DNA from: a virus
Direction: 5' to 3' (one strand)
Virus record (IMG/VR): IMGVR_UViG_3300035704_000393
Location: 9,677 to 73,676 of that record
Length of the DNA: 64,000 bases
This document shows positions 9,679-29,800 of this stretch, in pieces; within the stretch, counting starts at the first letter, position 1, and each line of letters begins with the position of its first letter. A program made the position numbers and the translations under genes. The notes under the pieces were generated by a model. It was given only the letters and a program-made list of their open reading frames with translations, was not told the origin of the DNA and searched no databases.

Positions 9679-9858
9679 GCCCGGCGGGGCCAGGCCCGGC
9701 GCACGCCGGCAGGCCCCCCGGCGGCGCGCGGCATGGACGGGACCGCAACGCGCGCCGCCGCTTCCCTCAGCGCCACGCGCAACCGGGCCTGGCTGACCAT
9801 CTCATGCCCCGCCTGTGGAGGCGTCATGCACAGGCTGTGAAGAACCTGTGGAGACCGC

Positions 9859-10961: not shown

Positions 10962-11052
10962 ACCTGTTCGATAGACTGGGCAAAAGCGTCCCCGCACCTG
11001 CTGTAACAGGCCGGGGACCGGACGGAACCTACCGACGACTTGAGGTCCCGAC

Positions 11053-11559: not shown

Positions 11560-11876
11560 CCGCTCAGGTCGAGCTGCCCGGCGTGGGCAAGGCAACGACG
11601 TGCGAAGCCTACGGGACCCACCGGCCGCAGCCTCTCCGGTTCGTTTGGCATCACGTCTTGCCGCAAGCATGCGGTGGTAAGACGGAACGTGACAACCTGG
11701 TATCTCTCTGCGACGGGTGTCACTATTCCTGCCATGTCATCATGTGGTTGTTCGGCCACGGCGGCCTGCTCGGCGGGACCCCGCACGGCACCAAGGGGCA
11801 GCGGGCGATCGCCCAGCGCGGCTACGACGAGGCGCTCGCCGCGGGCACCGCGGACAAGATCCCGAAGGAAGCCTGA
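11556..11876 (+). CDS. HNH endonuclease
   Basis: HHVLPQACGG...NLVSLCDGCH; ATGA coupling. Confidence 0.8.
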   Translation: MTAQVELPGVGKATTCEAYGTHRPQPLRFVWHHVLPQACGGKTERDNLVSLCDGCHYSCHVIMWLFGHGGLLGGTPHGTKGQRAIAQRGYDEALAAGTADKIPKEA

Positions 11877-11998
11877 CCGGCCTGCACCGCAGGCCCGGCC
11901 CGGCCCGGCGGAAGATGCTATCTCGAAGTTCCGGGCCTCGGTCTCGGGACGTGCCCGTAGGAGCCAGAGGCGAGCGGCGCCACCAGGTAGCGTACCGC

Positions 11999-12283
11999 TT
12001 ACGGCCCGTTACCGCCAGGGGCCGGGCGGCGCCACGCGAGCCAGGCCGGCAACCGCCCGCCGCGGGGCCGGCACGGCCCGGCCTGGTCCGAGCCGCCGCA
12101 CACGAACCCCCGGTACTCGCAGCCGGTACCGGTGCGCAGCACGACGGCCCGGTAGCCGCACTGGCGGCCGGCCGGGCACGGGCTCCGCGCGCCGATCCGG
12201 GTGACCGCGGCTCCCTCGACCATGAGGAACTCCGGGCTCACGTCGGCCTTGGCAAGCTCAGCGCTCAGGTTCACGGGCGTCAC
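11999..12283 (-). CDS. Small Cys-rich hypothetical protein
   Basis: GTG with a GGGAG RBS inside ORF 11999..12751; four Cys residues. Confidence 0.35.
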   Translation of the reverse strand: MTPVNLSAELAKADVSPEFLMVEGAAVTRIGARSPCPAGRQCGYRAVVLRTGTGCEYRGFVCGGSDQAGPCRPRGGRLPAWLAWRRPAPGGNGP

Positions 12284-12769
12284 GCTCCCGTCAACCCCCC
12301 CGAGATGTTGTGGGACTGCCGTAAACCGTACTACGGCGCGGGGACGGCAGGCGTGACAACCGCGGGGTTTCGCGAGCCGGGCCGGCGGCGGGCCGGCAGG
12401 AAAGCCAGCCCGCCGCCGCACGGTTCCTCCGGGCCGACCTGCCGGGTCAGCCGTATAGGTGCGTGAACTCCGCGTCGTACTCGTGCATCGCCCGTCCTCC
12501 CATCTGGCCTGTCCGGCCCTGGCCGCCGGAGGCCGGGGCCGGACACCGGCACCGTAACAGCGCCAACCCGCGGCGGTCAACACGTCACCCTCCGTGACAG
12601 CCGTCGGTTCGCGATAACAGCCCGGGACCAGGCGCGGATGCAGGGTAAACCCAGGCCCGGGGCCGGCAGCGGCGCGGTGACACGCCAGCGAGCGGTGAAA
12701 CTTGCATCGCCCGGCCCAGTGGATTACGGTAACTGCGACCCTACCGCGCACAGAAGGTCACAGACCGTA

Positions 12770-13612
12770 ATGGCCGCCGAAAACTCGTCCGCCCGCCTGC
12801 TCGGCGCCGAGCTGCGCGGCTGGCGCGACCGCCGCGGCCTGACCGGCGATGCCGTCGCCGGCCGCCTCAGATGGTCCCCGTCCAAGGTCTCCCGCGGCGA
12901 GACAGCCACCACCCGGCTGATCCGCGCGGCCGACCTGGACAAGCTCATCGTCCTCTACCGGATACCGCCCGAGGACGCCGACCGGCTCCGCGGGCTGCGC
13001 GAAGCCGCCGCCGACGGCCTGGACATGACCGGCCCGGGCCAGGACCCCCGCATCGCCGAGCTGCTCATCTGGGCGCCCGACGTGTTCCCCTCTGCGTTCC
13101 GCACCGAGCTGTACGCCCGAGCCCTGATCCGGGCGATGCGCCGCATCCGCCGCTACACCCCGTCCGAGATCAAGGCGGAGATCACCGCCGACCGCGACCT
13201 GCAAGCCCGGCTCCGCGGCGACCGGGCCGCGGACAACGACGGCGACCCGCTGCCCCGGCTGCCCGTGACCTGCGTCCTGGACGAAGCCGTGCTGACCCGC
13301 CGCCGCGGCGCCACCTCGGTCATGGAAGGCCAGCTCGGCCGGCTCGAAGAGATGGCCCGCCTCGGCGGCGTGGAGATCCACGTCCTGCCGCTGGAGGCAG
13401 ACGGCCCCACCAGTGCCCCGTTCGCCCTGCACGGCTACGACGACGAATCCGCCGATACCGTCCTGCTCACCAGCCCGTCCGGGACCGAGTACGTCACCGA
13501 CGAGAAAGCCGTCACCAGTTACCGGTTCCTGCACGAGGACCTGGTAGGCGCCGCCGCCGACGTCGAAGAGACACTCGCCATCATCAAGCAGGCGAGAGGC
13601 CGGTGGGAATGA
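12770..13612 (+). CDS. XRE-family HTH regulator with DUF5753 domain (Streptomyces WhiJ/Scr1-like)
   Basis: LGAELRGWRDRRGLT...WSPSKVSRGE; RTELYARAL, VLDEAVL...VMEGQLGRL...IHVLP. Confidence 0.85.
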   Translation: MAAENSSARLLGAELRGWRDRRGLTGDAVAGRLRWSPSKVSRGETATTRLIRAADLDKLIVLYRIPPEDADRLRGLREAAADGLDMTGPGQDPRIAELLIWAPDVFPSAFRTELYARALIRAMRRIRRYTPSEIKAEITADRDLQARLRGDRAADNDGDPLPRLPVTCVLDEAVLTRRRGATSVMEGQLGRLEEMARLGGVEIHVLPLEADGPTSAPFALHGYDDESADTVLLTSPSGTEYVTDEKAVTSYRFLHEDLVGAAADVEETLAIIKQARGRWE

Positions 13613-14268
13613 CCCCGATCGTCACCGAGATCCGCGAAGGCGCCGTGATCACCGGCTGGGAAGTAATCCGCACCGGGCTGCGCCAGAGCGGCCAGCCCGC
13701 GGCCCGGTGCCGCTGCCCGGAATGCCAGGCCCAGCGGGTCATCCGGACCAGCACCCTGCGCGGCGGAGGCACCCGCCCCTGCCGGCACCGCAAGCCCGGC
13801 CGGGCGGCCCGCCGCGGCCTCGTCCGGCCGCCGCTGGGACGACCCGGCCCGTCCCGAATCCACGCCTGGGCCACCCAGCACGCCGCCGGCCGGACCTTCA
13901 CCACCGCCGAAGCCGCCTCCGCACTGGACATGAGCCGGCCCGCCGCCGCCCAGCACATCGGCGACCTGATCGAGGCCGGACACCTCGTCACCGTCCGGTA
14001 CGCCTGCTACGCGCTGCCCGGCGCCGGCCCGTTCCCGCCGGCAGACCAGGCCGACCGGGAGAAGATCACCCTGTTCCTCGCCGCCGACGGCGGCGGCGCG
14101 TTCGCAGAGATCCGCGCCGCCACCGGGTACAGCTCCAGCCAGCTGACCGCCCTGCTCACGAAGATGGCCGACGACAGGCAGGTGATCCGCCTCGATGAGG
14201 GCCGCGGCGGGTTCTACCTGCTGCCCGGCCAGGAACCCGGCCAGGTCCTCGACATGCCCGGGACATGA
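13609..14268 (+). CDS. DNA-binding protein (Cys-rich N-terminus plus tandem winged HTH)
   Basis: ATGA coupling; CRCPEC; FTTAEAASALDMSRPAAAQHIGDLIEAG; EIRAATGYSSSQL. Confidence 0.6.
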   Translation: MTPIVTEIREGAVITGWEVIRTGLRQSGQPAARCRCPECQAQRVIRTSTLRGGGTRPCRHRKPGRAARRGLVRPPLGRPGPSRIHAWATQHAAGRTFTTAEAASALDMSRPAAAQHIGDLIEAGHLVTVRYACYALPGAGPFPPADQADREKITLFLAADGGGAFAEIRAATGYSSSQLTALLTKMADDRQVIRLDEGRGGFYLLPGQEPGQVLDMPGT

Positions 14269-14486
14269 AACCGCCGCCGACCGGTCCCGAACCCGAGCCG
14301 CTCCGCGGGCTGGCCGGGTTCCTCGGCCTGATGTTCGCGATGTGGGCGTTCGTCGTCGCCGCGACCCTCGCCGGCACCCACCACCTGTGGCCCGTCATGG
14401 GCGTCTGCGCCGCCGGGGCGGCCTGGTCACCGTTCGCCATGTACCAGCACGCCCGCCGCACCGACTCCCGCAACCCTCCCGGGTAA
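14265..14486 (+). CDS. Small two-TM membrane protein
   Basis: ATGA coupling; two hydrophobic segments. Confidence 0.55.
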   Translation: MKPPPTGPEPEPLRGLAGFLGLMFAMWAFVVAATLAGTHHLWPVMGVCAAGAAWSPFAMYQHARRTDSRNPPG

Positions 14487-14729
14487 CGCGCGAGCCGCCC
14501 TGATCATGTCGACGCACCACGCCCCCGACACCCGGCCGATCCGCCCGCAGCCCCGGCACTGCCACGCGTCCAGCTCGACCGCGAGGTCGCCCACCCCGTC
14601 ACAGCCCGGGTGGGCCACGCCGATCGCGGCCTGACCCGGCCCCGGGTAGACGGCACCGCCCGGCGGGATGACCAGCTCGCACTCGTCCCCGCCGATCGGG
14701 TCCGTGAACGCGTGCCGCGCCTCAGCCAC
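14427..14729 (-). CDS. Hypothetical Zn-ribbon protein
   Basis: HPGC...CRGCG; coupled to the upstream minus-strand gene. Confidence 0.5.
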   Translation of the reverse strand: MAEARHAFTDPIGGDECELVIPPGGAVYPGPGQAAIGVAHPGCDGVGDLAVELDAWQCRGCGRIGRVSGAWCVDMIRAARALPGRVAGVGAAGVLVHGER

Positions 14730-15174
14730 CCTCGGGCTCGGGCTCGGGGTCGTGCTCCAGCGCGCCGACCGGAATCCCGAACACCACCGGCCCGTGCGGC
14801 TGCTCGTACACCGGAACGTGCCCCGTGGTCAGCTCCAGCGTCCCGGCCTCGACCCAGAACCGCTCGCCCGCCTCGATGTCCCGCGGCCGGACCCCCGGCG
14901 CCGGCGTGTTGAAGTCCCTGCCCACCGGCCCGGACGTCCGCACCCTGGTGAAATCAGCCATCACGGCCACCCCTCCGGGCGGGCACCCTCGGCCCGCGCC
15001 GCCCGCAGCGTAACCCGGCCCCGGCCCGGCCGTCCGCCGTTTCCCGCGATAGCACCTCCCGCCGCCGTCCAGCAGCGCCAGGGCCAGCAGGATCAGCCCG
15101 ATAACCACGGTCGCCGCGGTGACGATGACCACCTGGCCCACCGTGTCGCCCCACCACCGGTCGCCGTAGCTCAC
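14722..15174 (-). CDS. Hypothetical protein (N-terminal TM; possible second start near 14961)
   Basis: Hydrophobic N-terminus; GGAGG before the internal MADFTR. Confidence 0.45.
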   Translation of the reverse strand: MSYGDRWWGDTVGQVVIVTAATVVIGLILLALALLDGGGRCYRGKRRTAGPGPGYAAGGAGRGCPPGGVAVMADFTRVRTSGPVGRDFNTPAPGVRPRDIEAGERFWVEAGTLELTTGHVPVYEQPHGPVVFGIPVGALEHDPEPEPEGG

Positions 15175-15284
15175 CGCCGCGACCGCCTGAGCAGCTCCGC
15201 GGCCAGCACCACGATCAGCAGCGGCAAGCAGACCAGCGCCCCGGCTGCGAACCCGGCGGCCAGCATGAACAGCGAATCGGTCAC
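15171..15284 (-). CDS. Small single-TM protein
   Basis: GTGA-coupled; TDSLFMLAAGFAAGALVCLPLLIVVLAAELLRRSRR. Confidence 0.5.
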   Translation of the reverse strand: MTDSLFMLAAGFAAGALVCLPLLIVVLAAELLRRSRR

Positions 15285-15403
15285 CAGGCCCTCACCTGGC
15301 CGTAGACAATCAGCTGGAGCACGGCCAGCGCCGCCGCGAACAGTACCGCGGCGACCACCAGGATGGCCAGCTCGATCAGCCGCATCCGCCACCACCGGCT
15401 CAC
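15281..15403 (-). CDS. Small single-TM protein
   Basis: GTGA-coupled; SRWWRMRLIELAILVVAAVLFAAALAVLQLIVYGQVRAW. Confidence 0.5.
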   Translation of the reverse strand: MSRWWRMRLIELAILVVAAVLFAAALAVLQLIVYGQVRAW

Positions 15404-15837
15404 GGCCCGGCCCCGCTGAAACTCCAGCCGCGGTTCAGCGCGTACGGGTACGGGCAGTCGTCGCCGTGGCCGCACCCCTGGATCTGCCGCCGCCACTCCG
15501 CCCGGGCCGCGACCGCCGCCGCGGGCCGCGGACCGTCTGGCATCCCCGGCAGCGCCTGCTCGAAGTCGAGCACCACCAGCTCCGGCGGACCCGGATACTC
15601 GTCCGGGTCGTAGTACTCGTGCAGCTCCCCGAACGGCCCGCCGGTCAGCACGCAGTGCACGTACGGCCGGCCGGGCCGCAGCGGCGGCCAGAACCGGGGC
15701 CGCCGCGCCCCGTGCGCGTTGACCCCGCCGGCGCCCTGCTCGACGCAGGCCGCCCGGACCTGCCAGATGATCTCGCCGCGTGAGCCCAGCAGCTGCCACA
15801 CCCCGGCGTCCCGGTCCAGGACCCATCCCTTATCCAC
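15400..15837 (-). CDS. Hypothetical protein
   Basis: 3' part of ORF 15400..16197 with high GC3; first gene of the antisense mini-operon. Confidence 0.5.
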   Translation of the reverse strand: MDKGWVLDRDAGVWQLLGSRGEIIWQVRAACVEQGAGGVNAHGARRPRFWPPLRPGRPYVHCVLTGGPFGELHEYYDPDEYPGPPELVVLDFEQALPGMPDGPRPAAAVAARAEWRRQIQGCGHGDDCPYPYALNRGWSFSGAGP

Positions 15838-15865
15838 GGCGGCATCGTAGCGGAAGGAGGCGGTC

Positions 15866-18800
15866 ATGCCGGCCCGAACGCGGATGAACGGCGTGCCGAC
15901 CACCCCCGTCGGCCGCCCCGATGTGGTCTGGGGGCTCCCCGGGCAAGGGGGATTGCTCACCGAATGGGCCGAGACAGTTCCGGATCTGACGTGGCCGGAA
16001 TCAATCCGGACATACGGGAGAATGCGCCGGGACAGCAAAATAGCAGCCGTTCTCAGCGCATTCTTCATGCCCATTCTCCGCACAAACTGGGCGGTCGACC
16101 CGGAAGGCGTCACCAAGGCTAAGGCGGTCGACCTGGTAGCCGCGGACCTGGGCCTGCCCGTGCTCGGCCAGAAGGGGCCGCCGCCCGCGATGGCCACCGT
16201 GCCCGGGTTCCACTGGGGCGAGCACCTGCGGCTGGCGCTGCTGCACTACATCTACGGGTTTTTCCCCTTCGAGCGCTGGTACAACGCCAAGTCCAAGGAC
16301 GGCCTGACCCATCTGGCCGGCCTGGACGAGCGGCTGCCGCACACCATCGCGCTGATCGACCTGGCCGACAACGGGCAGATCAAGTCGGTTACGCAGAACA
16401 CCCAGCTGAACCCGCTTACCGCTAACCGCCTTTTGTGGTACGTGAATGAGCGCGAAGGCGCGAACTGGGCGGGCGTGTCAATGCTCCGCGCGGCCTATAC
16501 CCCGTGGGTTCTCAAGCACGAGACAATGCGCGTTCATGCCACCAGCATCCGCCGGTGGGGAATGGGAATGCCGGTCGTCAAGGCGCCCCCCGGCGGCACC
16601 CCCGGCCAGGTCTCCCAGGCGCAGCAGCTCGCCTCGGGGATGCGGGCCGGGGACACCGCCGGCGTCGGCCTGCCCGACGGGTTCAGCGTCGAGATCGCCG
16701 GGATGACCGGCTCCGTGCCCGACGCGCTCGGGTTCCTGAACTACTGCGACCAGCAGATCGCCTCCGCGGCGCTGGCCGTCTTCCTGGAACTCGGCCTGTC
16801 CTCCGGCGGCGCCCGCGCCCTCGGCGACACGTTCCTGGACATGTTCCTGCTGTCGCTCCAGGCAGCCGCTGACGCGATCGCCGACACCATCTCGTACGGC
16901 GTGCCCGCCATGCCGGGCATCGCCCGGGCGCTGACCGACATCAACTTCGGCGAAGACGAGCCGTGCCCGCGGATCGTCGCGACCGACGTCGGCGACCGGC
17001 ACGAGATCACCGCCACCGCGATCCAGCAGCTCGTCATGTGCGGCGCCGTCCAGCCCGACGACGGCCTGGAAGCGTTCATCCGGCAGGCGTGGGACTTCCC
17101 CGCCCGGACCACCCCGCGGACCCCCCCGGCACCGCCCAAGGCCCCCGGGGCGCCCGGCGGCCCGCCGAACCCGGCCGCGCCGTCCAGCCCGAATCCGGCC
17201 GCGCCCGGCCCGCAGCCCGGCGCGCCCCGGCCGCTCACCGGCCCGCCCGGCCGCCGCGGCGGGCAGCCCGCCACCGGCCCGGCCCGCTCTGCCGGCGGAC
17301 CGACAGCAGCCGCCGGCGTGGAAGCAAGCGCCGGCGGCGGCCTGCGACGCCCTCTGACGGAGCTGGAGGCCGCCGCCGGGCTCGACCCCGAAGCCATGCG
17401 CGCCGACCTGGAAACCGCCACCAGCCGGGTACTCGGCCAGTGGGGGTCCGTGCTCCGCGCGCAGCGCGCCGACCTCGCCGACCAGGTAGCCGCCGCCGTC
17501 GATGACGGGCAGCTGCACCAGCTCGCCGCCCTCCAGGCCCCGTCCGGCGACGCCGCCGACGTGCTGTACCGGGCGATGGCCGCAGTCGCCGCCCGCGCCG
17601 CCGGCCGGATGGTCGCCGAAGCGGCCGGGCAGGGCGTCACCATCAACCTGGCCGACGTCGCCATCAACCACCCCCGGCTCCGGCAGCTCGCCACGGCCCG
17701 GGCCTTGATGGCCGGCCAGACGCTGGCCACCGCCGCGTCCCGCCGTGCCCTCCAGGTCGTCACCGCCACGGCAGGCACCGACGCCGCCCGCGAAGTCACC
17801 GCTGTCCTGGCCGGCCTGTCACCCAAGCCGCTGGCCGACCAGCTGACGGCCGCGATGCACTCCGCCGCCAACGAGGCCCGCTTCGCCGTGCTCGACGCCG
17901 GCCCCGGCGCCACCTACACCGCCACCGAGCTGGCCGACGACCCGAACTGCTGCCAGCCCTGCCACGACGTCGACGGCCACCAGTTCGCCAGCCTCGCGGA
18001 TGCGCGAGCGTCCTACGCCAACGGCGCCTACATCCACTGCCTCGGCGGGCTCCGCTGCCGCGGCACCGTCGTCGCGTCCTGGCCCGAGGAAGGCGGGCAG
18101 CCCGCCGAGCCCGGCTGGCCGCACAACCTGACCCCGCCGCCCGACCTCACCATCGGCCCGGGCGTGGCCGCCGGGTTCGACCCCGGCGAGCGACGCGACC
18201 CGCACACCGGCCAGTGGACCGGAGAAGGCGGCAGCACGGCCCGCACCCTGACCCGCAAGGGCCACGGGAAGCTATCCGCCGTCGACCGGCTCGGCGCCAT
18301 CCGCGCCGACGGCACCTTTGAGCCCATCACCGCCGCCGAAGGCGCCCGCGGCGACTCCCGGCCCGTGTCGATGGCGGAGTTCCAGCGGCTCGCCGCCGAA
18401 GGCCGCGAGAAGCTCGCCCGGTTCCGCGCCGAGTCCGCCGCACCCGCCGGCCTGGACGCCAAATGGGACACGATCAAGAACGACGCGTGGGCCGAGGTGC
18501 AGAAGCCCTGGGGCGGCGCCACCATCGACGCGCACACCGGCGAGCCCCTCCAGACCGCCGCCGCGCGGTACGCGCTCACCGTCAAACCGGTCGACCTGGA
18601 CCCGGTGTCGGTCCCGGAGAAGGCGTCCGAGGCCCAGTTCAAGGCCGCGATGGACGAAGCCCGGCGGCGGTTCGCCGACCAGCTCGCCGCCCGGCAGGCA
18701 TACCTCGGCGTGTTCCACGACGACGACCAGGGCCGCATCGACATCGACCCCACCCTCGTGGTCGACAACCTGCACGACGTCGAGACCATCGGCGCGTTCA

Positions 18801-21800
18801 CCCACGCCATCGGCGGCGCGTACAACTTCGCCGACGGCAACGGCTACTGGCCACCGCACGTCGCCGAGCAGGCCGGGCTCGCCCCGGCCGCCGCCGCCAA
18901 GGACGACGAGCAGGGCAAGCCGGTCCCGTTCAAGGGACCCGGCCAGTGGCGCACCCAGGCCGACAAGGCCCGCCGCGACGCCCTCAAACGGCTCCAGGAG
19001 CAAGGCGGCAGCGACGAGCACGCCGGGCCGGACACCACCACGGCCACCGCGGTCCGCATCGACGTCACCCTCAACCCCGGACACGACCTGCCGGACTGGC
19101 ACCAGCCCGACCACGGCACCCTGGCCTCCGCCCAGGACGAAATCGGCAGGCTCCGCGACTGGCCGGGCGGCGGCGCGGCGATCCGCGAGGTGGTGGTCCG
19201 CCCAAAAGGTGAAGCCGCCCACGCGGCGGCCGACACCCCAGGCGGGGCCTGGACGGTCCGCTACGTCTTCGCCCGCTCCCGGCCGGCGTTCGACCCCCGC
19301 GAGGCCCGCGACACCGCCGGCCGGTGGACCAGCACCGGCCTCAAAGAGGCCCTCCGCCTGCCCGGCGCCCACCGCATCGACGCCGCCGACCAGCCCGGCC
19401 ACGCCATCATCGCGTTCGGCGACCCGGCCACCGCCCGCCACGTGGTCACCTACGTGCCCGGCGTCGGCGACGACAAGGGCCTGCCCGGCGAGGCCCGCCG
19501 CGCGCTGGCCACCAGGCGCGCCGCCGACGCCGAACACAAGGGCGACTCGGCCGTCATCCTCTGGCAGGGCTACCACCGGCCCGGCAGCTTGCACGACGCA
19601 CTGTCCAAGACCGACGCCCTCGGCGGCGCCCCCGGCCTGGCCGCCTTCGAGCAGCACCTACGGCAGATCAACCCGTCCGCACACCAGACGGTCATCGGCC
19701 ACTCCTACGGGTCCGTCGTCGCCGGCGAAGCCGCCCGCCTGCACCACATGCGCCCCGACGACCTGGTATTCGTCGGCAGCCCCGGCACGACCGCCCGCAC
19801 GGTCACCGACCTGGGTATGGACCCACGGCACGTGTGGGCCGGGGCACACACCCAGGACCCCGTAGCCCGCCTCGCCCCGGTCCTGTCCGAGGACTTCCAC
19901 GGCAGCCCCACCAGCCTGGACTACGGCGCCCAGCCGTTCGCCGCCGACACACCCGGCCAGGAGTTCCCCGGCGTCTTCCACGGCGCCGCGCACTCGTCCT
20001 ACTGGTCCGGCACGAGCCAGGCCCTGCCGAACATGGCGGCGATCGCCGCCGGAGACTACGGCAAGGTACTCCGCAAACGACCCGCCCCGGTCACTGTCTC
20101 GGCCAGCCACGCCGAAGCCGCCACCCTAGTCACCGCCGCACTCCGCCAGGATGACGCCGCCCCTGTCGCGGCCGGCTCCGACTTCGACCTGAAGCACCCC
20201 CGCGGCTACCACGGCCGGTTCGGCCACGGCGTAGGACCGCCCCGCAAGACCCGCATCCCCGCCGGCCTGGACAGCGGCGACCGCAAGATGATCGCCGACC
20301 AGCTCACCGCCTGGGCCAAGGCAGAGAAGGACGACAGCCTCAAAACCGCCCTGGGCATGGTCGCCACGAGCTACGCGGACGGCGACTACCCCGGCGCCGC
20401 CTACCGCCTCCGCCTCGCCGCGGACCGCGCCGCCCAGCTCGGTCGCCCCCTCGACCACGACCAGATGAACACCATCGCCGGGCTGATCGGCAAGCTCGGC
20501 ACCGGCGGCGGCGGCGAAGGCTACCCCGGCCAGCACCGAGACCAGATCAGCAGCCACTGGCGGGCCGAAACCGACCCCGAAGCCAAACAGCACCTCAACG
20601 TGGCCGGCGCCGCCTACGGCAACAACCAGTACGACCAGGCCGCCGACGAACTCCGCGAGGCCGCCGGCCGCGTCGGCCCCCTCGGCCGCACCGCCGACCG
20701 GGACACCTACCTCGCCCTGGCCGACGCGATCGAGCAAGAAGGCCAGGACAACGGCATCAGCCACGCCGCCCAGCTGCTCACAGCCATCGGCACCGAAACC
20801 GACGCCACCAACGTCGGAACCATCGCCGACCAGCTCAGCTACGCGCACCGCGTCATCGAAGCCGCCCACCAGGGCACCCGGTGGCGTTCCCAGGCCGCCG
20901 GGTACCTCCGCCAGGCCGCCGACCTCGCCCGCGCCACGGGAGACAGCCAGGCCGCCAACCGGTACGAGAACCTCGCCCACCGGGCAACACACCTGCCCGA
21001 CGAGCAGGCACCCGGCGACCGCGACGTCACGGCCCTGCTCGCCAGGGCCGCACCCGACGTCCCGGAGCTGCTCGGCGGCGGCGACCAGCGGTGGAACGGC
21101 CGGCTCGGCACGTTCACCAAGACCGACCAGCCCGACTACCTCGGGTTCACCTACCCCGACGGGCACATCGAGTTCCGCACCGACGTCGTAAACGGCCTGC
21201 TCGACGCCCAGGCCCACCCCGGCAAGGTAATGCCCGAACCCGACAACCTCGACGTCGTGCTCCACGAGCTGATCCACGACACCACCGGCGGTCGCACCGA
21301 GCAGGACAAGAAAGACTGGGCCGCGCTGCCCCCCGCCGAGCAGAACGCCCTGGGCGGCATCCACGAGATGGATCAGCACGACGACCCGTCCGGCCGCGGC
21401 AACCCGATCGCCCGCGCCCCCAGCCAGATCCAGCGGGTCCACCTGTGGATCACCAAGGCGCAACTCGACTCGCTCGTGTCCCGCGGGCTGATGGAGAAAA
21501 CCGGCACCAGCAGCGGCGGCGGGGACGGCTCGCTGGAGCCCGACATCCGGCTGGCAGGCAAAGCCCTCCGGATCATGCCCCATGCCGACAGCGCCGCCGA
21601 CGGCGACGCTTACACCTCCGTGACCGGCCACGACATCGAGGAAGGGTTCACCGAGCTGGGCTCCACCCAGCACATGGAGCAATTCGCCAAGGACCAGGGA
21701 TTCGCCCAGGTGATGACCCCGCGGCTATCCGTCGCGCCGCTGGGCACCCCGCCCACCGAGAAGCAGGTCCTCGACGTCCAGGACGACCTGAAAACCCTGT

Positions 21801-24800
21801 ACGACGACGCCGGGAAGGTCGGCGGCCAGCCCGGGTCGCTGGAAGCCTACGTCACGCTCAGCAACGCCATCCACGAGATGGAGTCGATGACCGGCCCGGA
21901 CGCTGACACCACCGCCTACGCCGGGTACCTCGCCCAGGCCGCCCGCACCCAGCCAGACCCCCTCATCCGCAGGCGGATCAACGACCTGATGACCCGGCTC
22001 GGCATCACCGGCGGCGGCACCGTCGACAACCCGGCTTACGACCGGGCTGTCACCCGGCTGATCGGCGACCTCCAGAAGCAGTGGGCCAAGCTGTCCGGCG
22101 ACCAGCGCCCGCCCTACCAGCAGGCCGCCGAGCACCTCGGCGGCATGATCGAGGACCTCAAAGCCGACCACGCCCAGCTGGCCGCCTACGACTTCACCGG
22201 CCGCGACTTCTCCACCACCGGGCACGCGCTGGCCGAAATCCAGCACCTGGGCGACCCCGGCCTGGCCAAGTGGGCCATCAAGATGAAAGCCCAGGCGGCC
22301 AAGGCCCAGCAGATCCCGGCGGCCCGGCACGACACCGTACCCGAGTACGCCCACGGGCTCGCCGCCCCCGCCAAACTCGCCTCCAGCGGGTCGTGGGGCC
22401 ACTACCCGATCCTGACCGCCAACGCCCAGCAATGGGTCCAGTCGATCGCCCGCAGCGAACACAAAACCGGGCTCGGCAAGCAGGGCACAGCCGGGTACAA
22501 GCGGACCGTCGAGCTGGCCGACGAGATCAACCGGGAAGGAACCGCCGGGAAGATCACCGCGATGGCCCGCCAGGTCCTCCGCAACCAGGGCATCGACCCC
22601 GACACCGCCGACCCCTCCGTGCTCGCCGACGTCCGCGACGAGATCATCGCCACCTACGGCGACCCAAGCTCGGCCGGGCACGGCGCCGCCGCCGCCTACA
22701 AAGCCGCCCGCCGGGTCGCTAGGCAGCGGCAGCAGGGATACCAGCGGCAAGGCGGCACGATGGTCAAATTCGGCGCCGCCGCCGACGACGCCGACGACGA
22801 GGACGCCCAGCCGCCCGTCAGCGCCACGCTGACCCCGGCCGGCGCGCAGGCCGAACGGATCAGGGCCTGGGCCTGGCACGACCCCGGCGCCCGCCTCGAC
22901 CAGGCCAGGGCGCAGGTCCGCCAGCTCGCCGAGCAGACCACCGACCCGGCCGCCCTGCGCCAGGTCCAGGACGCCGGCCGCAGCCTGGCCACCCTCGCCG
23001 CCCTCCGGCAGCCCGCCGCCGGCCCCGCCGCGGCGTTCCGCCCGGACGAGGCGCGCGACCCGCACACCGGCAAATGGACGGGCGGCCCCGGCAGCACCGT
23101 CACCGCCCGCGAGCGTGTCACCGGCGCTAACGGCGCAGTACAGCCATCCCTGACCACCGCCCAGCAGCAGCACCTGGCGGCAGCCGCCAGGGCCGCGAAA
23201 AAGACCATGACACCCGCCCAGCGGCACGCCGTCGAGCAGTGGACCAGCGCCCGCGGCATGGTGCACCGTATCCAGGCCGGCCAGGTCTCCGACGCCACCG
23301 CCACCGCGTTCGACCAGGCCATGCACGCCGCCCCGAAAGTCGACGGCCTGGTCTACCGCGGAGTGCTGCCCGGCAGCCACGGCGCCCAGGTCGCCGAGCA
23401 CCTGACCCCGGGCGACATGCTGACCATAGACAAGCCGGTATCGACCTCGGCCGACCCCCGGCAGGCGGTCTCATTCGGCAACGACCTGTACGAAATCGAC
23501 TCGCCAGCGGCGGCCTACGTCTCCGGCGTCGCCCCCGGCTACGCCTACGAGAAAGAAGCCGTCCTGGCCCCCGGCCGGTACCAGGTCGTCAGCACGGAAA
23601 CCGGCAAGATCAACTACCTCAGCGTCCGCAAGACCGGTCCCGTCCGCATCATCCGGCTCCGCGACGTCACCACCGGCGACCGGACCTGGCGGCCATCCGC
23701 CACCGCAGCCACCCCGGCCGCCGCGGCGCCGCCCGGCGGCGAGGACAACCGGGCGCACCGGTTCCTGGACGGCGCCGGCACCGGCGAGTTCACCCCGGCC
23801 GGCACCCTCGCCGCAGCCGGCGTGGTGACCGCAGACTCCGACTTCGAGCGCAAGCACCCCCGCAGGCCCGACGGGAAGTTCGGCCACGGCCCCGGCGGAA
23901 CCGTCCGGCCCGACAACGACCAGCTGATCACCGACAGCCTGTACCGCCTGTACCAGGCCGAGCAGGACCCCGACGCCCGCGCCGCCGTCCAGCAAGCCGG
24001 CCGCGCCTACGCCGACCACGACCTGCCCGCCGCCGCCCGCGCGCTCCGCGACGCAGCAGGCCACGCCACCAACCCCGGGATCTACACCTACCTCGCCGGC
24101 CGCGTCGAGGACCGCCACGCCGCCCAGGCCAGCGAACCCGCCAGGGCGATCGCCGTCGCCGGCCCGGCCGCCAGGGCCACCGCCGCGGCCCTGGACAAGG
24201 CCCTGGCGTCCGGCGGGGAACACGACACCAGGCCCGGCGAGGACCTCCCGGCAGGCTCCGACGAGCGGCGCTTCTTCGGGAACACCGCCGACACGGCCAT
24301 CGTCACCTACGCCGACGGGTCCAAGTGGGTCCGCAAACGCGGCAACCGCCTGCACCCCTTCACCAACGATGACGTCAACCACGAAGTCGCCTACGCCCGC
24401 GTCGCCCGCGCGCTCGGCATCCCCGCCCCCATCGCCATCAAGCACACCGGCCCCGACGGCCGGCCCGAACTGTACGAGCCGTTCGTCACCGGCGGCATCC
24501 CCGCGATCGAATGGACCGGCGGCCTCGACCCGACCGAAGGCGACGACCCCGAACCCGGCCGCGACCCCGCCCAGCTGTACGACACCCGCGAAGGCCGCAT
24601 GATCGGCCTGGCCGACTCGATCGCCGGAACCTCCGAACGGCACCTCGGGAACTGGCTCGTCGTCCACGACGCCGCCGGCGACCACCCCGTCCCGATCGAC
24701 AACAACGACGCCACCTTCGGCCCCGTGTTCGGGTCGATCACCCCGTTCGCCGACTTCGACCCGCCCCAGCTCGCCGCCGAAACCGACGCCGACGAGTGGG

Positions 24801-24922
24801 CACAGTGGCAGGCCGGCCTGGAGGCCCTGCAACCCGAGTTCGCCCAGCTCGGCATGACCACCGAATGGCGCAACGTGATGAGCAACTACACCGAGGCCAA
24901 ACGCCAGGCAGGCGAGACATGA
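15866..24922 (+). CDS. Giant portal-MuF-effector polyprotein (3018 aa): DUF935-type portal, MuF-like Cys domain, unknown domain, alpha/beta hydrolase, helical repeats, HExxH peptidase, R-S-E ADP-ribosyltransferase, PI3K/HipA-like kinase
   Basis: AAGGAGG RBS. Portal: MRRDSKIAAVL, GVSMLRAAY, RWGMGMPV. MuF-like: DPNCCQPC...CLGGLRCRG. Hydrolase: GHSYG (19697). Peptidase: HELIH (21263) and EEGFTE. ART: YRG (23354), STS (23441), EKE (23549). Kinase-like: ERHLGN (24635) and IDN. Confidence 0.85.
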   Translation: MPARTRMNGVPTTPVGRPDVVWGLPGQGGLLTEWAETVPDLTWPESIRTYGRMRRDSKIAAVLSAFFMPILRTNWAVDPEGVTKAKAVDLVAADLGLPVLGQKGPPPAMATVPGFHWGEHLRLALLHYIYGFFPFERWYNAKSKDGLTHLAGLDERLPHTIALIDLADNGQIKSVTQNTQLNPLTANRLLWYVNEREGANWAGVSMLRAAYTPWVLKHETMRVHATSIRRWGMGMPVVKAPPGGTPGQVSQAQQLASGMRAGDTAGVGLPDGFSVEIAGMTGSVPDALGFLNYCDQQIASAALAVFLELGLSSGGARALGDTFLDMFLLSLQAAADAIADTISYGVPAMPGIARALTDINFGEDEPCPRIVATDVGDRHEITATAIQQLVMCGAVQPDDGLEAFIRQAWDFPARTTPRTPPAPPKAPGAPGGPPNPAAPSSPNPAAPGPQPGAPRPLTGPPGRRGGQPATGPARSAGGPTAAAGVEASAGGGLRRPLTELEAAAGLDPEAMRADLETATSRVLGQWGSVLRAQRADLADQVAAAVDDGQLHQLAALQAPSGDAADVLYRAMAAVAARAAGRMVAEAAGQGVTINLADVAINHPRLRQLATARALMAGQTLATAASRRALQVVTATAGTDAAREVTAVLAGLSPKPLADQLTAAMHSAANEARFAVLDAGPGATYTATELADDPNCCQPCHDVDGHQFASLADARASYANGAYIHCLGGLRCRGTVVASWPEEGGQPAEPGWPHNLTPPPDLTIGPGVAAGFDPGERRDPHTGQWTGEGGSTARTLTRKGHGKLSAVDRLGAIRADGTFEPITAAEGARGDSRPVSMAEFQRLAAEGREKLARFRAESAAPAGLDAKWDTIKNDAWAEVQKPWGGATIDAHTGEPLQTAAARYALTVKPVDLDPVSVPEKASEAQFKAAMDEARRRFADQLAARQAYLGVFHDDDQGRIDIDPTLVVDNLHDVETIGAFTHAIGGAYNFADGNGYWPPHVAEQAGLAPAAAAKDDEQGKPVPFKGPGQWRTQADKARRDALKRLQEQGGSDEHAGPDTTTATAVRIDVTLNPGHDLPDWHQPDHGTLASAQDEIGRLRDWPGGGAAIREVVVRPKGEAAHAAADTPGGAWTVRYVFARSRPAFDPREARDTAGRWTSTGLKEALRLPGAHRIDAADQPGHAIIAFGDPATARHVVTYVPGVGDDKGLPGEARRALATRRAADAEHKGDSAVILWQGYHRPGSLHDALSKTDALGGAPGLAAFEQHLRQINPSAHQTVIGHSYGSVVAGEAARLHHMRPDDLVFVGSPGTTARTVTDLGMDPRHVWAGAHTQDPVARLAPVLSEDFHGSPTSLDYGAQPFAADTPGQEFPGVFHGAAHSSYWSGTSQALPNMAAIAAGDYGKVLRKRPAPVTVSASHAEAATLVTAALRQDDAAPVAAGSDFDLKHPRGYHGRFGHGVGPPRKTRIPAGLDSGDRKMIADQLTAWAKAEKDDSLKTALGMVATSYADGDYPGAAYRLRLAADRAAQLGRPLDHDQMNTIAGLIGKLGTGGGGEGYPGQHRDQISSHWRAETDPEAKQHLNVAGAAYGNNQYDQAADELREAAGRVGPLGRTADRDTYLALADAIEQEGQDNGISHAAQLLTAIGTETDATNVGTIADQLSYAHRVIEAAHQGTRWRSQAAGYLRQAADLARATGDSQAANRYENLAHRATHLPDEQAPGDRDVTALLARAAPDVPELLGGGDQRWNGRLGTFTKTDQPDYLGFTYPDGHIEFRTDVVNGLLDAQAHPGKVMPEPDNLDVVLHELIHDTTGGRTEQDKKDWAALPPAEQNALGGIHEMDQHDDPSGRGNPIARAPSQIQRVHLWITKAQLDSLVSRGLMEKTGTSSGGGDGSLEPDIRLAGKALRIMPHADSAADGDAYTSVTGHDIEEGFTELGSTQHMEQFAKDQGFAQVMTPRLSVAPLGTPPTEKQVLDVQDDLKTLYDDAGKVGGQPGSLEAYVTLSNAIHEMESMTGPDADTTAYAGYLAQAARTQPDPLIRRRINDLMTRLGITGGGTVDNPAYDRAVTRLIGDLQKQWAKLSGDQRPPYQQAAEHLGGMIEDLKADHAQLAAYDFTGRDFSTTGHALAEIQHLGDPGLAKWAIKMKAQAAKAQQIPAARHDTVPEYAHGLAAPAKLASSGSWGHYPILTANAQQWVQSIARSEHKTGLGKQGTAGYKRTVELADEINREGTAGKITAMARQVLRNQGIDPDTADPSVLADVRDEIIATYGDPSSAGHGAAAAYKAARRVARQRQQGYQRQGGTMVKFGAAADDADDEDAQPPVSATLTPAGAQAERIRAWAWHDPGARLDQARAQVRQLAEQTTDPAALRQVQDAGRSLATLAALRQPAAGPAAAFRPDEARDPHTGKWTGGPGSTVTARERVTGANGAVQPSLTTAQQQHLAAAARAAKKTMTPAQRHAVEQWTSARGMVHRIQAGQVSDATATAFDQAMHAAPKVDGLVYRGVLPGSHGAQVAEHLTPGDMLTIDKPVSTSADPRQAVSFGNDLYEIDSPAAAYVSGVAPGYAYEKEAVLAPGRYQVVSTETGKINYLSVRKTGPVRIIRLRDVTTGDRTWRPSATAATPAAAAPPGGEDNRAHRFLDGAGTGEFTPAGTLAAAGVVTADSDFERKHPRRPDGKFGHGPGGTVRPDNDQLITDSLYRLYQAEQDPDARAAVQQAGRAYADHDLPAAARALRDAAGHATNPGIYTYLAGRVEDRHAAQASEPARAIAVAGPAARATAAALDKALASGGEHDTRPGEDLPAGSDERRFFGNTADTAIVTYADGSKWVRKRGNRLHPFTNDDVNHEVAYARVARALGIPAPIAIKHTGPDGRPELYEPFVTGGIPAIEWTGGLDPTEGDDPEPGRDPAQLYDTREGRMIGLADSIAGTSERHLGNWLVVHDAAGDHPVPIDNNDATFGPVFGSITPFADFDPPQLAAETDADEWAQWQAGLEALQPEFAQLGMTTEWRNVMSNYTEAKRQAGET

Positions 24923-26571
24923 CGACCCTCGCCGTGTACTCCGCCACCCGCCTCCTGGGCGAGATCACCCTCGACGGCAAGAGGCTGACCGGTTCCACCC
25001 CCGCGCTGCAAAACGTCGCCGACGTCGTAGCCCAGCGGGCCGGCGGCGACGTCGCCAAGGCATACGCCGCGCTGACCGGCTGGACCAACGGCTACCTCAC
25101 CATCACCACCGCCCCGGCCGCGGCAGGCGGCGGAGCACAGGCCGCGGCCTGGGACCCGGCCAAACACCGGCGCAAAAACAGAGGCCAGCCCGGCGGCGGC
25201 GAGTTCACCGACACGGACGGCGCCGGCCTGCCGCCGGTCCCCGACCTGTCCAAGATGAGCCGCGACCAGCTCATCACCCTGCTAGCCGACCAAGCCGGGT
25301 GGGTTGTCGACCATAATCTCGGCGGCCACCCGGAAGCCAGGGAACGGCTCCGCGCGATACGAGACGCGCTGCACGCCGGACCCGCCGGCCAGGCGCCCGG
25401 CGGCCCCCGGCCAGGCACCCCCGAGGCGCTGCTCGCCAGCATGACCGGGAACTACGACATCGAACCCGGCGTGCCCGCCGCGCAGAAACAGCACATCGCC
25501 GCCGCGCTCGCCCGGCTCCCCGCCCCGGTCCGCCAGGACATCAAGAACTACGGGACGATGCGGCAGGTCTCCATCCGCCAGCACAACTGGCAGACCGAGG
25601 CCCCCGAAGGCACCGTCACCGCGATCGGCAGCTACAACACGGACAGCCGCACCCTGACGATCTCCGCCGACTCCGGGGACGCAGCCCAGACAGCGGTCCA
25701 CGAATCGCTGCACGCCTGGGACCGGGGACCAACCGGCGCCCCCGGCCGGTTCTCCCGCCAGCCAGACTTCACCGCGATCGCCGGCCTGATCCGCGACGCC
25801 GCCCGCCGCCACCCCCGGCTGGCCGACCCGCACTACGCACCGGCCGGCGCCCCGCCCGGCCGCCTGGGCCAGCGGCTGCTCGACGCGGGCAACGCGGAGA
25901 TGTTCGCCGAACTCGGCGCCGACTACCTCGCCGGCTACCCGTACAACCTCCATGACCGGGGCTCGGCGACCGGGGCGCTGCCCCCGCCCATCCGCGCCAG
26001 ACTGGACGCCTACTACACCGGCGTCTTCCACATCCCCCGCAAGCCCGCCCGGCGCACGACAGCCGCCGCGGCGGACGCCGCCGACCTGACGGCCCTGTCC
26101 TGCGTCAGGACAACCAACCCGCCCAGCTGGCTCTTTACCACCGCCGACGGCACGGCAGTCAGCCCCGAGACCGGCGAGCCCGCAGCGCCCGGCGCTGCCG
26201 CCGCGGCATCCCGGACCGACGAAGCCCGCGGCCCGGATGGCCGGTGGATAGGCGGCGACGCTCACGGCCGGTTCTTCCACGGCACCCGGGCCACCTACGA
26301 ACCAGGCCGGGTGCTCAGCGGCCAAGTGCACTACTACACCGGGTACCGGCCCCAGGCGGCGAGCTACGCCCAGGGCGCCACACAGCACGGCCCGGCCCGC
26401 GTCTACCAGGTCGAGCCCATCGAGGGCCACGAACGCGACCCGGAGTATCCCGACACCGGCGAGAAGGTCCAGTGGCCGCCGGGCGGCGCGTGGCGAGCCC
26501 GCAAGGTCCGCGTGATCCGCGAGGTCAGCCACTCGGAGATGCCCCAGCCGGAGGACACCCCCGCGGTTTAG
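24919..26571 (+). CDS. Head-cargo polyprotein 2 (550 aa): lethal-factor-like HExxH metallopeptidase plus Arr-like ADP-ribosyltransferase
   Basis: ATGA overlap with the portal stop. GSYN...HESLH...EMFAE; FFHGT...YYT...ASYA...RVYQVEP...ERDPE...VRVIREV. Confidence 0.75.
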   Translation: MTTLAVYSATRLLGEITLDGKRLTGSTPALQNVADVVAQRAGGDVAKAYAALTGWTNGYLTITTAPAAAGGGAQAAAWDPAKHRRKNRGQPGGGEFTDTDGAGLPPVPDLSKMSRDQLITLLADQAGWVVDHNLGGHPEARERLRAIRDALHAGPAGQAPGGPRPGTPEALLASMTGNYDIEPGVPAAQKQHIAAALARLPAPVRQDIKNYGTMRQVSIRQHNWQTEAPEGTVTAIGSYNTDSRTLTISADSGDAAQTAVHESLHAWDRGPTGAPGRFSRQPDFTAIAGLIRDAARRHPRLADPHYAPAGAPPGRLGQRLLDAGNAEMFAELGADYLAGYPYNLHDRGSATGALPPPIRARLDAYYTGVFHIPRKPARRTTAAAADAADLTALSCVRTTNPPSWLFTTADGTAVSPETGEPAAPGAAAAASRTDEARGPDGRWIGGDAHGRFFHGTRATYEPGRVLSGQVHYYTGYRPQAASYAQGATQHGPARVYQVEPIEGHERDPEYPDTGEKVQWPPGGAWRARKVRVIREVSHSEMPQPEDTPAV

Positions 26572-26809: not shown

Positions 26810-29800
26810 GTGCCCTACACCACCGCTGGCGGCTGGGCCAGCCTCGACCTGGCCGGCCCGCCGCCCGACCTCACCGGGTGGCTAACCGGCGCCGCCGCGA
26901 TACCCGGCAGGCCCTGGCACGTGGTGATCGAGAACCACCCCGGCTGCACGCCCGACAAGCCGCATGGCATCGTGGCCGGCGGCGAGCGGCTGCTCGCCTG
27001 CCACGCCACCCCCGAAGAGGCCCGGGCGATCGCCGAGAAGCTCGACCTGTCCGAACCATCCGGCGTCGGCGACAGCAGCACCGGCGGGACCAGCGCGGCG
27101 TTCGACCCGGCCAGGCACCCGCGGATCGAGCACGGCCACGGCGGCGGCGAGTTCACCCACAACCCGTTCGGCATCCCCGCGCCGACCCCCGGCACCGCCG
27201 GGCACCTGCACGACGGGATCACCGACCCGCCCCCGTCTCAGGCGCTGAAAATGAAGGGCGCGTTCACCCTCGCCGGCCTCGGCCCGGACGACAAGCTGCT
27301 CGGCAAGGTCAACGCCAAGCTCACCCGGCCGCTGATGGGCGCCGGCCCGAACAAGGGGAAAGTCCGCCGCCCCGCCGTCCCGCCCTACCGGCAGTCCGTC
27401 ACGAAAACCTCCGCCGCGATGATGGCCCTGATCGAACAGCAGGGCACCCTCGAAGAGGGCAAGAAGTGGTACCCCGACGAGCACGAGATGAACCACCGCC
27501 GGGCGCTGGCCTACCACGTCCCGATCGACCGCGCGATCGGCGTCGAAGCCGCCACCTGCCCCCGCGTCCAGTGGATCATCAACCAGCGGGTCACCAACGA
27601 GCTGCTGGACGAGGTACCCAAAGCCGGCCGCACCATCGAGAAGATCAAGATCGCCCACCACTTCGGCGGCGGCGTCATGGCCAGCTTCCGCGACGAGGGC
27701 GTCGACATCATCCTGAACGGCGACGTCGACCACGTGCTCGGCGGCACCAAACGCCGCAACTTCTACAACAACATCATGTGGCCCGGGCAGACCGATTCGG
27801 TCACCGTCGACACGTGGATGCTCCAGGCCCTCAAGCCGCTCGGCCTGAACGACCAGCAGGCAATGGCGCTCGGCGAGCAGTCCGTGGCCGGGCTGGCCGA
27901 CGGGCTCGGCAAGGTCATCGTCGCCGACGCGCTCCGCGACGCCACCGCCCGCTACCGCGCGCAGGGCGTCGACATCACCCCCGACGGCGTGCAGGCCGCC
28001 GCCTGGATCGCGATCCAGAAGCAGCTCGGCCTGTCCGACCCCTCCGCCCACGACAACCCCCGCGACACCGCCTACATGCTGCACGCCGCGTTCCGCAGCG
28101 AGCTGCACCCCCGCACCGGCAAGGGCCAGAAGGGCGCCGGCGAGTTCGCCAGGCTGGAGCTAGGCGGCGGCGGCAGGCACACCGGCCCGGGCTCGTTTGA
28201 GCACATCCGCTCGATCGAGCACCTCGCCGACGAGATCGACACCGCCAACCTGGCCGGCGGCGGCGGCCGGTCCGAGACCGCAGCCGCGCTGCGGAACGTG
28301 GCCCGGCACGTCGGCCTGCGGCAGGTCGACGTGGCCAGGCAGCACATGGCGGTCGCCCTGGCCGCCGCGAAACGCGACAAGCTAGGCGACCTCCAGATGC
28401 GCGACCTGCGCGCCATTGCCGCAAGCCTGGACAACATCCCCAAGGGCACCTACCCCGAGCCCGGGTTCGGCGAGCGCGCCAAGGACGAGGAAGCGCCCCC
28501 GTCGATCCAGCGGCACCGCCGCCAGGGGCCGGGCTACTTCCCCTCCCGGGTCCACCAGGCGGCAGCCCAGCCGGACCCGGACGACGACGGCGGCGAGCTG
28601 ACCGACGACCAGTGGGACGCCGAGCTGCTGCTCCAGTACCTGGAGTGGCTCGCCGAAGCGGTCCCCGGCGGCGTCGACCTCGGCTCGCCCGGCTCCGCCC
28701 GCCTCACCGGCGGGCTGGCCGCGGACAACCCGGCCGCCTGGAAACTCGCCCTCGCAGACCCACGTTTCGGGAGGCTCGGCATGACCACCGCCCAGGCCAG
28801 GCAGGCCGCCCGCGGCACCGCGCCGCCACCGCCAGCCGCACCGCAGGCCGCCTGGAACCCGCTGAGGCACCCGCGTAACAAGCAAGGCGAATGGACCGCG
28901 GACGGCGCCGCCAAAGACATCGCGACGTCGGCGAAGTCCGTACACCCGAACGTCTGGAACATGGGCGGGGGCGGCGCCGTCGACGCCCTGCACCGCGGCG
29001 ACCTGCGCGAAGCCCAGGCCAACCTGGCCCGCGCCCGCGACTTCGCCGCGCTCACCCACCGCGACCAGGACCAGGCGGTGATGCAACGGCACCTCGATGC
29101 CGTCACCGAGCACCTCAAGACACCCGCCCAGCGGGTCGCCGAGATGGAGCAGGCAGACAAGCCGCTGATCAACCGGGCCGAGGTCACCGCCGAGCCGAAC
29201 TACCCCGGGTCGGCCGCCAAGAATGTCCACGACAGCGACGGCAACCTCGTCGGCATGGTGTTCCCGCACCCGGACGGCAAGGGCGGCTACCAGGCCACCG
29301 ACGATCAGGGCGCCAAGATCGGACTAGACCGGATGCCAAGTGAGGACGCGGCTATCGGCGAGGTGGTCGCCGAGCGGAACCGCAAGCAGCTGACCGCCGC
29401 CGCCGCCAGCCAGCCCGCCGGCCCGGTCACCGTCCGGGAGAACCACCCGGAATGCCCGGCGCACGCCCCGCACGGCACCGTCGACTCCCGCACCGGCGAG
29501 CTGGTCATGTGCCACCGCACCAAGGACCAGGCCCAGGACCTGGCGCTCACCCTGAATTTCCCCGACGCCACCCCGGTCACGCCCGGCGCCGTCATGCAGG
29601 TCGGTGCGGCCAAGGGCGGCTTCCGGGAGGACCTGCACCCGCGCCGCGGACGCGGCAAGGGCGGCGGGGAGTTCGCCCCCAAGGGCCAGGGCGGCGGGCA
29701 GCCCGCCAGCCAGCGCACCCTCCAGCGGCGGCGGCAGGCCGAGGTCCGGCGGCACCCCGGCAGCCCGCCGGCCAGGCCCGGGCAGCCCCCGCCCGGCGCC

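Follow-up and report, generated by a model that had tools for sequence, protein, structure and literature searches.

Why a phage would carry its portal at the front of a protein of 3018 amino acids (aa), and whether such a protein is real, are the questions raised by the locus described here. The window, i.e., the whole stretch of DNA that was analyzed, covers 64,000 nucleotides (nt; positions 9,677 to 73,676) of the IMG/VR virus record IMGVR_UViG_3300035704_000393. On its + strand, an open reading frame (ORF) at 15866-24922 starts with a Mu-type portal domain and continues through a MuF domain into a long series of further modules. This giant portal fusion was confirmed to be one real, intact gene. 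Five copies of one ~20-residue tag stand at the module borders of its product, and each of the enzyme cassettes that it carries starts with such a tag. The giant protein is probably a polyvalent protein that is tethered to the portal and brings effectors into the head, with likely cleavage at the junctions before their delivery.

The integrity of the frame has to be established with care, as the stretch has a base composition of 73% G+C and long chance ORFs are therefore common in it. The ORF and its translation start signal are the following.

15866-24922, + strand: whole ORF (protein P0001), with a stop-free translation of 3018 aa
15852-15860, + strand: Shine-Dalgarno sequence GGAAGGAGG, 5 nt upstream of the ATG at 15866, a strong ribosome-binding site

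In its own frame, the G+C content at third codon positions (GC3) of the ORF lies between 0.87 and 0.97 in each 300-nt window from 16100 to 24799, and the pattern shifts in the two windows that span the start and the 3′ end of the ORF. Such a steady GC3 along the gene argues against a hidden frameshift or a joining of unrelated frames. The ATG at 15866 is supported as the start because the homologue P0003, which comes from another assembly, matches the giant protein from residue 1 on (85% identity). The database protein P0002, whose start lies 52 codons downstream, is then probably annotated too short. At the other end, the TGA stop of the giant ORF and the ATG of the next gene overlap as ATGA. 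Two soil-metagenome runs yielded Logan contigs that contain all 9057 nt of the ORF with neither differences nor gaps; as both may be the source of the IMG/VR DNA, they do not count as independent evidence. In a third sample, most of the ORF was covered, the only changes being substitutions and one in-frame 3-nt deletion, with no break of the frame and with part of 17252-17847 having no listed contig piece. None of the sequencing runs listed for this DNA was an RNA run. Apparent “joints” in the comparison of contigs with the ORF were taken as spurious, as their sides were 20-28 nt long with 90% likeness and the data were metagenomes. The uninterrupted portal fusion of 3018 aa proposed in the initial annotation of this DNA therefore stands, with no internal stop, a continuous coding signal and three samples behind it. 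A sequencing error hiding a stop codon finds no support in the codon bias, in the identical contigs or in the frame-preserving third sample.

The first 745 residues of the protein consist of three parts.

15866-17110, + strand: Mu-type portal domain (aa 1-415), recognized through Pfam, PHROG and solved portal chains
17111-17347, + strand: Pro/Gly/Ala-rich linker (aa 416-494), opening with a run of seven C at 17121-17127
17348-18100, + strand: MuF domain (aa 495-745), with CxxC at aa 696-699 and RCRG at aa 730-733

The portal domain matches Portal_Mu (PF06074) over aa 48-394 with an E-value of 2.4e-38 and a score of 132.8 bits against a cut-off of 23.9, covering positions 2-323 of the 336 of the model. 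The same region also matches PF21919 in Pfam and PHROG 113 (E 4.8e-71), and its sequence matches solved portal chains (9c39 with E 8.1e-10, the G20c/P23-45 portals with ~1e-7). For the MuF domain, the evidence comes from an alignment of nine segments of 26-50% identity (A1), in which C202, C205, C231 and R236-C-R-G are invariant. Phage_Mu_F (PF04233) was matched by seven of these nine members, with a best E of 1.4e-4; the giant protein's own MuF segment gave no PF04233 match at E <= 1, and the MuF profile gave no meaningful match in the PDB. In tblastn, aa 11-741 fall on two adjacent Arthrobacter phage genes annotated as portal and MuF-like minor capsid protein. The N-terminus had been predicted to be a portal followed by a Pro-rich linker, a Cys-rich MuF-like domain at 17340-18085 and long cargo; these predictions were borne out with a slightly shifted MuF domain, more than 2,200 aa following portal-MuF. 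The accompanying remark that portal-MuF fusions are known agrees with fusions given in passages of Iyer 2017 (PMC5512222). Among the nearest portals with DNA (53-66% identity), portal-MuF forms one frame of ~670-770 aa that is followed by a stop and has no cargo. At portal identities of 42% or lower, MuF is a separate ORF in the loci where MuF was found.

The stretch belongs to a 73.7-kb IMG/VR provirus with a CheckV completeness of 94%, which is a temperate siphovirus-like phage. A profile search on the provirus DNA returned the giant ORF as the sole Portal_Mu match; neither a match to the PF04860 portal nor a second MuF was found in the 73.7 kb. The giant ORF lies within the head operon (6365-37000), with TerL (6365-7966), scaffold-like genes, the major capsid protein, connector proteins and a tape measure protein of 1460 aa on one strand. 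The nearest portals come from uncultured viral contigs of 70-76% G+C and from a Nonomuraea prophage, which makes a high-GC soil bacterium, an actinomycete, the probable host. In Nonomuraea sp. SYSU D8015, a portal-MuF of 53% identity is present that lacks cargo.

Behind the MuF domain, a module named A closes the conserved part of the protein.

18236-19051, + strand: module A (aa 791-1062; core aa 816-1040, 18311-18985), an alpha/beta domain to which no match assigned a function
19052-19279, + strand: small beta-rich spacer (aa 1063-1138), where the conserved chassis gives way to the variable part

Module A has at least 349 homologues of 45-66% identity in many architectures, in which its partner domains include portal, MuF, DUF7178, ParB, zeta toxin, PemK and Arr. 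In its AlphaFold2 model, the core has a predicted local distance difference test (pLDDT) score above 90. Foldseek gave no match of module A to PDB structures and the best VIA-wide Z-score was 4.0. Its structural neighbours in BFVD are uncharacterized phage proteins only, and the ESM Atlas gave nothing but unnamed viral clusters that scored at most 0.80. No tblastn match to module A was obtained in 50,697 deposited phage records. In viral contigs, module A was often seen directly before sequence resembling module C, which is described below.

The position of module A in the chassis is illustrated by the relatives of the giant protein. P0003 (1853 aa) shares 68% identity with it over residues 1-1062 and has the C-terminal module in common with it, P0137 (1132 aa) shares 62% identity over residues 1-1061, and the alignments of P0136, P0139 and P0250 reach ~1036-1045. 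Judging from these alignment ends, portal-MuF-A (residues 1-1062) is the conserved unit, the relatives varying in their cargo beyond ~1062. The initial annotation had counted at least five cargo domains after MuF. The first of them (aa 791-1062) is module A and belongs to the chassis, which P0137 and P0003 share at 62-68% identity, whereas four tagged enzyme cassettes remain. Therefore, the cargo consists of these four cassettes, an inserted winged helix and helical spacers.

The borders between modules are marked by the tag, the copies of which (J1 to J5) are located as follows.

18167-18235, + strand: tag J1 (aa 768-790)
19280-19345, + strand: tag J2 (aa 1139-1160)
20171-20245, + strand: tag J3 (aa 1436-1460), of the form KHPR..G.FGHG
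23027-23101, + strand: tag J4 (aa 2388-2412)
23828-23905, + strand: tag J5 (aa 2655-2680)

In the giant protein, the tag follows the pattern F-D-P-x-E-x-R-D-x-x-G-K/R-W/F and then becomes Gly-rich. A loose form of this pattern was found in 94 of 258 related proteins with a total of 166 copies, vs 14 in shuffled sequences, and the aligned copies gave the consensus A-L-A-F/W-D/N-P-x-E/Q-P-R-D/G-x-x-G-R/K-W/F-T-x-G-G-G. Three to five copies are present in each of 20 related proteins. The tag also occurs as an N-terminal leader, at residues 13-32 of ~30 free-standing relatives that start with Met. At the DNA level, the tag copies are only 71-84% alike over 25-95 nt, so that homologous recombination between them would be poorly supported. 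A literature search for the tag as a motif string returned no paper, which is weak evidence that it is undescribed; neither the junction tag nor module A was found in passages of Iyer 2017 (PMC5512222), and the word “linker” occurs 0 times in the paper.

Each of the tags J2 to J5 opens a cassette, and the four cassettes carry modules B to E.

19346-20155, + strand: module B, an Abhydrolase_8 alpha/beta hydrolase (PF06259) with GHSYG at aa 1278-1282
20246-23020, + strand: module C (aa 1461-2385), helical units followed by a zincin-like domain
21263-21277, + strand: HELIH motif of module C
~21293-21589, + strand: winged-helix insert of module C
21632-21661, + strand: IEEGFTELG..QH motif of module C
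23102-23785, + strand: module D, a predicted R-S-ExE mono-ADP-ribosyltransferase with R2498, S2526-T-S2528 and E2562-x-E2564
23906-24919, + strand: module E, a helical unit followed by a domain resembling PI3/4-kinases, with K2824, ERHLGNW at 2924-2930 and ID at 2944-2945

Module B was recognized directly by its PF06259 match (E 8.9e-33, 113.9 bits vs a cut-off of 20.5), and the G-x-S-x-G nucleophile elbow is present. In module C, IEEGFTELG..QH comes ~120 residues after HELIH and both motifs are kept in every homologue that covers them. The AlphaFold2 model of this module (pLDDT 78.5) places a winged helix between the two motifs. The flanks of this insert resemble the catalytic domains of M1 gluzincin aminopeptidases, with VIA Z-scores of 8.2-8.7 over 190-210 aligned residues, a middling match, and the insert itself resembles MarR/TubR winged helices (Z ~8.4); Foldseek gave no PDB match for module C. 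The model is thus suggestive, not proof, of a putative gluzincin-like metallopeptidase domain. Module D gave no match in Pfam. Its Y-R2498-G, S2526-T-S and E2562-K-E2564 are invariant or nearly so in 20 homologues, and its profile matched in the PDB the arginine-specific toxin Vis (E 9.3e-9), Vip2 (1.8e-4), Tre1 (3e-3) and ExoS (0.024). Hence, module D is a predicted arginine ADP-ribosyltransferase (ART) of the R-S-E clade. Module E has ~100 homologues and forms the C-terminal end of the protein in all three long relatives. The profile of module E matched the type II PI4-kinase PI4K2B (E 2e-5), the alignment running through the DRHxGNW loop and IDxG, and the Pfam match to PI3_PI4_kinase was weak (E 0.01, below the cut-off). 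K2824, R2925-H, N2929 and I2944-D are present. In the catalytic loop (ERHLGNW, 24632-24655), residue 2924 is Glu, as it also is in P0004, and Asp in at least 90% of 44 homologues. Single-sequence phmmer searches against the PDB were uninformative for modules A, D and E, for which profiles were needed, and NCBIfam added nothing for the giant protein. Internal repeats of 85 aa had been considered and were dropped, as blastp of the giant protein showed none. No paralogues of its modules were found elsewhere in the window.

The relatives also show how the cassettes are combined. In P0004, a cargo protein of 1897 aa, the order is an ART-like module, a module X, module C (60% identity), an Arr-like module and a kinase-like module. 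The edges of the homology blocks between P0001 and P0004 and between P0003 and P0004 lie at most ~45 residues from a tag, and the 1015-residue block, for example, stops precisely with the G-K-W-T-G-G of tag J4. The Arr-like module, internal in P0004, forms in the present genome the end of the next gene, where a tag precedes it. Module C is also found as a separate protein of 610 aa (P0254), and a longest contig of 162,882 is recorded for P0254 and P0003 alike. These comparisons indicate that cassettes have been exchanged at the tags. P0137 and P0004 are probably encoded on one contig, 19,220 being the longest contig in both records, with the chain split into two ORFs; scans of metagenome contigs with P0004 and P0137 found nothing. 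As for size, a sample of 401 actinobacterial genomes gave nine Mu-type portal frames, the longest of which has 1058 aa, and only two other long relatives came out of a set of 5.8 billion proteins, the search being restricted by word sharing. The size and cargo count had been called extreme, which is a relative term, since published polyvalent proteins reach 15 domains and portal and MuF fusions have also been published.

Three large genes that follow the giant ORF lie on the same strand, and two neighbouring head genes, 24919-26571 and 30181-33945, also contain the tag.

24919-26571, + strand: gene for a protein of 550 aa, coupled to the giant ORF by ATGA, with a tag from ~26200 and a C-terminal Arr-like ADP-ribosyltransferase
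30364-30435, + strand: tag variant AWNPAAHPR...GGQF, before PG_binding_1 in a head-region protein of 1254 aa

The first ~430 aa of the product of 24919-26571 match no family. Its C-terminus matches Arr-ms in Pfam, the rifampin-ADP-ribosyltransferase type, with E 9e-5, just below the cut-off. A further gene (26810-30181) encodes a protein of 1123 aa with DUF7178 (PF23802), a frequent partner of module A in relatives, yet this protein has neither module A nor a recognizable tag. The 1254-aa protein of 30181-33945 combines PG_binding_1 with strong matches to PHROG 3894 and 2976, labelled “head maturation protease”, for which there is no Pfam counterpart. This protein could act as a head protease, could be ejected as a lysin-like protein, or could do both.

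In the reading favoured here, the N-terminal 415 residues would form the portal ring at the DNA-packaging vertex. The C-termini of portal subunits (the crown) face the capsid interior, and the MuF protein of SPP1, gp7, is bound to the portal within the head. The chain that follows the portal is hence expected inside the procapsid, into which the linker, MuF, module A and the four enzyme cassettes would hang. Behind the conserved portal-MuF-A chassis, the giant protein would be an end-to-end concatenation of individually tagged head-cargo genes, and it looks like one since the tag also leads free-standing cargo proteins. Inside the head, the chain would most likely be cleaved at the tag junctions or close to them. 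Indeed, a tethered enzyme cannot pass the portal channel and the portal stays in the head, so cleavage near the tags is the most economical reading. The candidate cutting enzymes would be the phage head protease, i.e., the PHROG-labelled region of 30181-33945, or the protein's own zincin-like module C. Once freed, the hydrolase, the ART and the kinase-like enzyme would leave the head together with the DNA and act on the cell that has just been infected. According to a rough estimate, 12 chains of ~2,600 residues amount to ~3.4 MDa and ~4,000 nm3, i.e., ~3% of the volume for ~70 kb of DNA, and the arrangement is physically feasible; it would bring up to 12 copies of each enzyme to the vertex. 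Metallopeptidase domains have been proposed to self-process polyvalent proteins in passages of Iyer 2017 (PMC5512222), and ARTs fused to MuF or portal as well as head-packaged ARTs have published precedent.

Other explanations start from the same gene. If the protein stayed uncleaved, its enzymes would act tethered, before assembly in the producer cell, or after lysis as a MuF-type polymorphic toxin, and none would be injected. MuF-toxin fusions of temperate phages have reportedly been proposed as interbacterial toxins, and both the R-S-ExE ART of module D and the Arr-like ART of the next gene would fit a toxin role. Moreover, the sequence upstream of the tags showed no specific protease site, only Ala/Gly-rich stretches. 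However, the tag also heads free-standing proteins and modules of other head genes, which points to a shared handling step rather than to a passive linker, and the chain contains a conserved zincin-like module. No cognate immunity gene was recognized directly downstream of the giant ORF, where the next gene matches no family in its first ~430 aa and ends in the Arr-like ART. An uncleaved protein is thus considered unlikely. A frameshift could also make most ribosomes yield a short portal or portal-MuF-A, in which case the 3018-aa form would be minor and a head would contain few cargo chains. The candidate sites are the run of seven C in the linker and an in-frame CCCAAAA heptamer at 19201-19207 (aa 1113). 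A -1 slip at the heptamer reads AGG TGA, i.e., a stop after one codon, and would give a portal-MuF-A product resembling P0136 and P0137. The heptamer with its immediate -1 stop lies ~50 residues beyond the ends of these two proteins, a coincidence with a rough chance estimate of 4%. Still, no stable structure was found downstream of CCCAAAA (z = 0.58) and runs of C are expected in a Pro-rich linker of DNA with 73% G+C, so that such frameshifting appears quite improbable.

An accidental origin, by loss of stops in a decaying prophage or by an assembly artefact joining genes, would be in keeping with a metagenome provirus record and with the relative that has its chain in two ORFs. This is contradicted by the GC3 of 0.87-0.97 throughout and the intact catalytic motifs, by the identical contigs in two assemblies and the frame-preserving changes of the third sample, and by the retention of a fused portal-MuF-A-cargo-kinase frame in P0003 at 68% identity. 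Such an accident is therefore held to be highly improbable. The loading of tagged effectors through the portal, followed by their release, remains the preferred explanation, and several of the results above weigh against it. Besides the missing cut site, the head protease was assigned by a PHROG label alone, and such labels are also put on MuF proteins. The match of module C to the zincin fold is middling (Z ~8.5), and the activity of module E may be altered, weak or lost, as far as the Glu in its catalytic loop suggests. In addition, the split chain of a relative, with portal-MuF-A in P0137 and separate cargo in P0004, implies that tethering is not required, and the fusion seen here could be recent. 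A broader idea, possible but rather doubtful at this stage, is that the tag is a general, undescribed address label for phage-head proteins, maybe marking processing. The giant protein would then be a fixed-stoichiometry loader, in which each of 12 portal subunits brings one swappable effector set and module A and the zincin-like module serve as docking and release machinery.

Upstream of the giant ORF, ~8 kb separate TerL from the portal (7966-15866), an unusual insertion that contains the following features.

12638-13612: DNA-binding protein of PHROG 9908
13603-14268: MarR-like regulator
15281-15826: divergent ORF of 181 aa

Further upstream, 2000-4400 has 83% G+C and is of low complexity, with Pro/Ala/Gly-rich translations, degenerate tandem repeats of 60 nt and long ORFs on both strands.

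If the favoured explanation is true, every particle would be guaranteed a defined dose of several host-modifying enzymes, encoded in a protein that no head lacks, and the cargo would evolve by cassette swaps at a common tag. Searches of metagenomes for effectors packaged in heads would profit from the tag and module A as handles, and the two might also help to bring foreign proteins into capsids. In annotations, the gene should be described as encoding a portal-MuF polyvalent protein, the ART, hydrolase, zincin-like and kinase-like parts of which are predicted virion-borne effectors.

Phage T4 packages Alt and the internal proteins into its head and injects these enzymes, an ART among them, into the host; their N-terminal capsid targeting sequence (CTS) directs them into the prohead and is removed by gp21. 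The giant protein shares with this system a short peptide on its predicted head cargo and an ART, and its processing would be the counterpart of the gp21 step. In contrast, the T4 CTS has no sequence similarity to the tag, and the cargo of T4 has no covalent link to the portal. The Arthrobacter phages (e.g., Colucci gp4 and gp5, MF185718) have 35-37% identity to aa 11-741 and the same order of portal and MuF-like parts, both after terminase, but there the two are separate genes without tagged cargo. The MuF polymorphic toxins of temperate phages, reported in Jamet 2017, also occur in prophages and consist of MuF followed by variable C-terminal domains of toxin type, including ARTs. They reportedly have one toxin domain and a cognate immunity gene, whereas here four cassettes are present with a portal in front and no immunity gene was recognized. 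The closest likeness is to the polyvalent proteins of phages and conjugative elements, described in passages of Iyer 2017 (PMC5512222) as having 2-15 domains and including effectors fused to portal and MuF. A protein of this kind has at least two effector-type domains in a virion-gene context, and the giant protein has a hydrolase, a zincin-like domain, an ART and a kinase-like domain behind portal-MuF. Many effectors per chain, a place beside the portal and terminase genes, the presence of ART, peptidase and hydrolase domains, and domain mosaicism are common to both. The portal fusions given in those passages are simple (portal-MuF-PBECR, 2H), unlike the present one, in which the sole portal of the phage carries ~2,600 residues. 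The theme is thus a known one, of which this protein is a very large example, distinguished by the size attached to a sole portal, by its tag-delimited cassettes and by module A.

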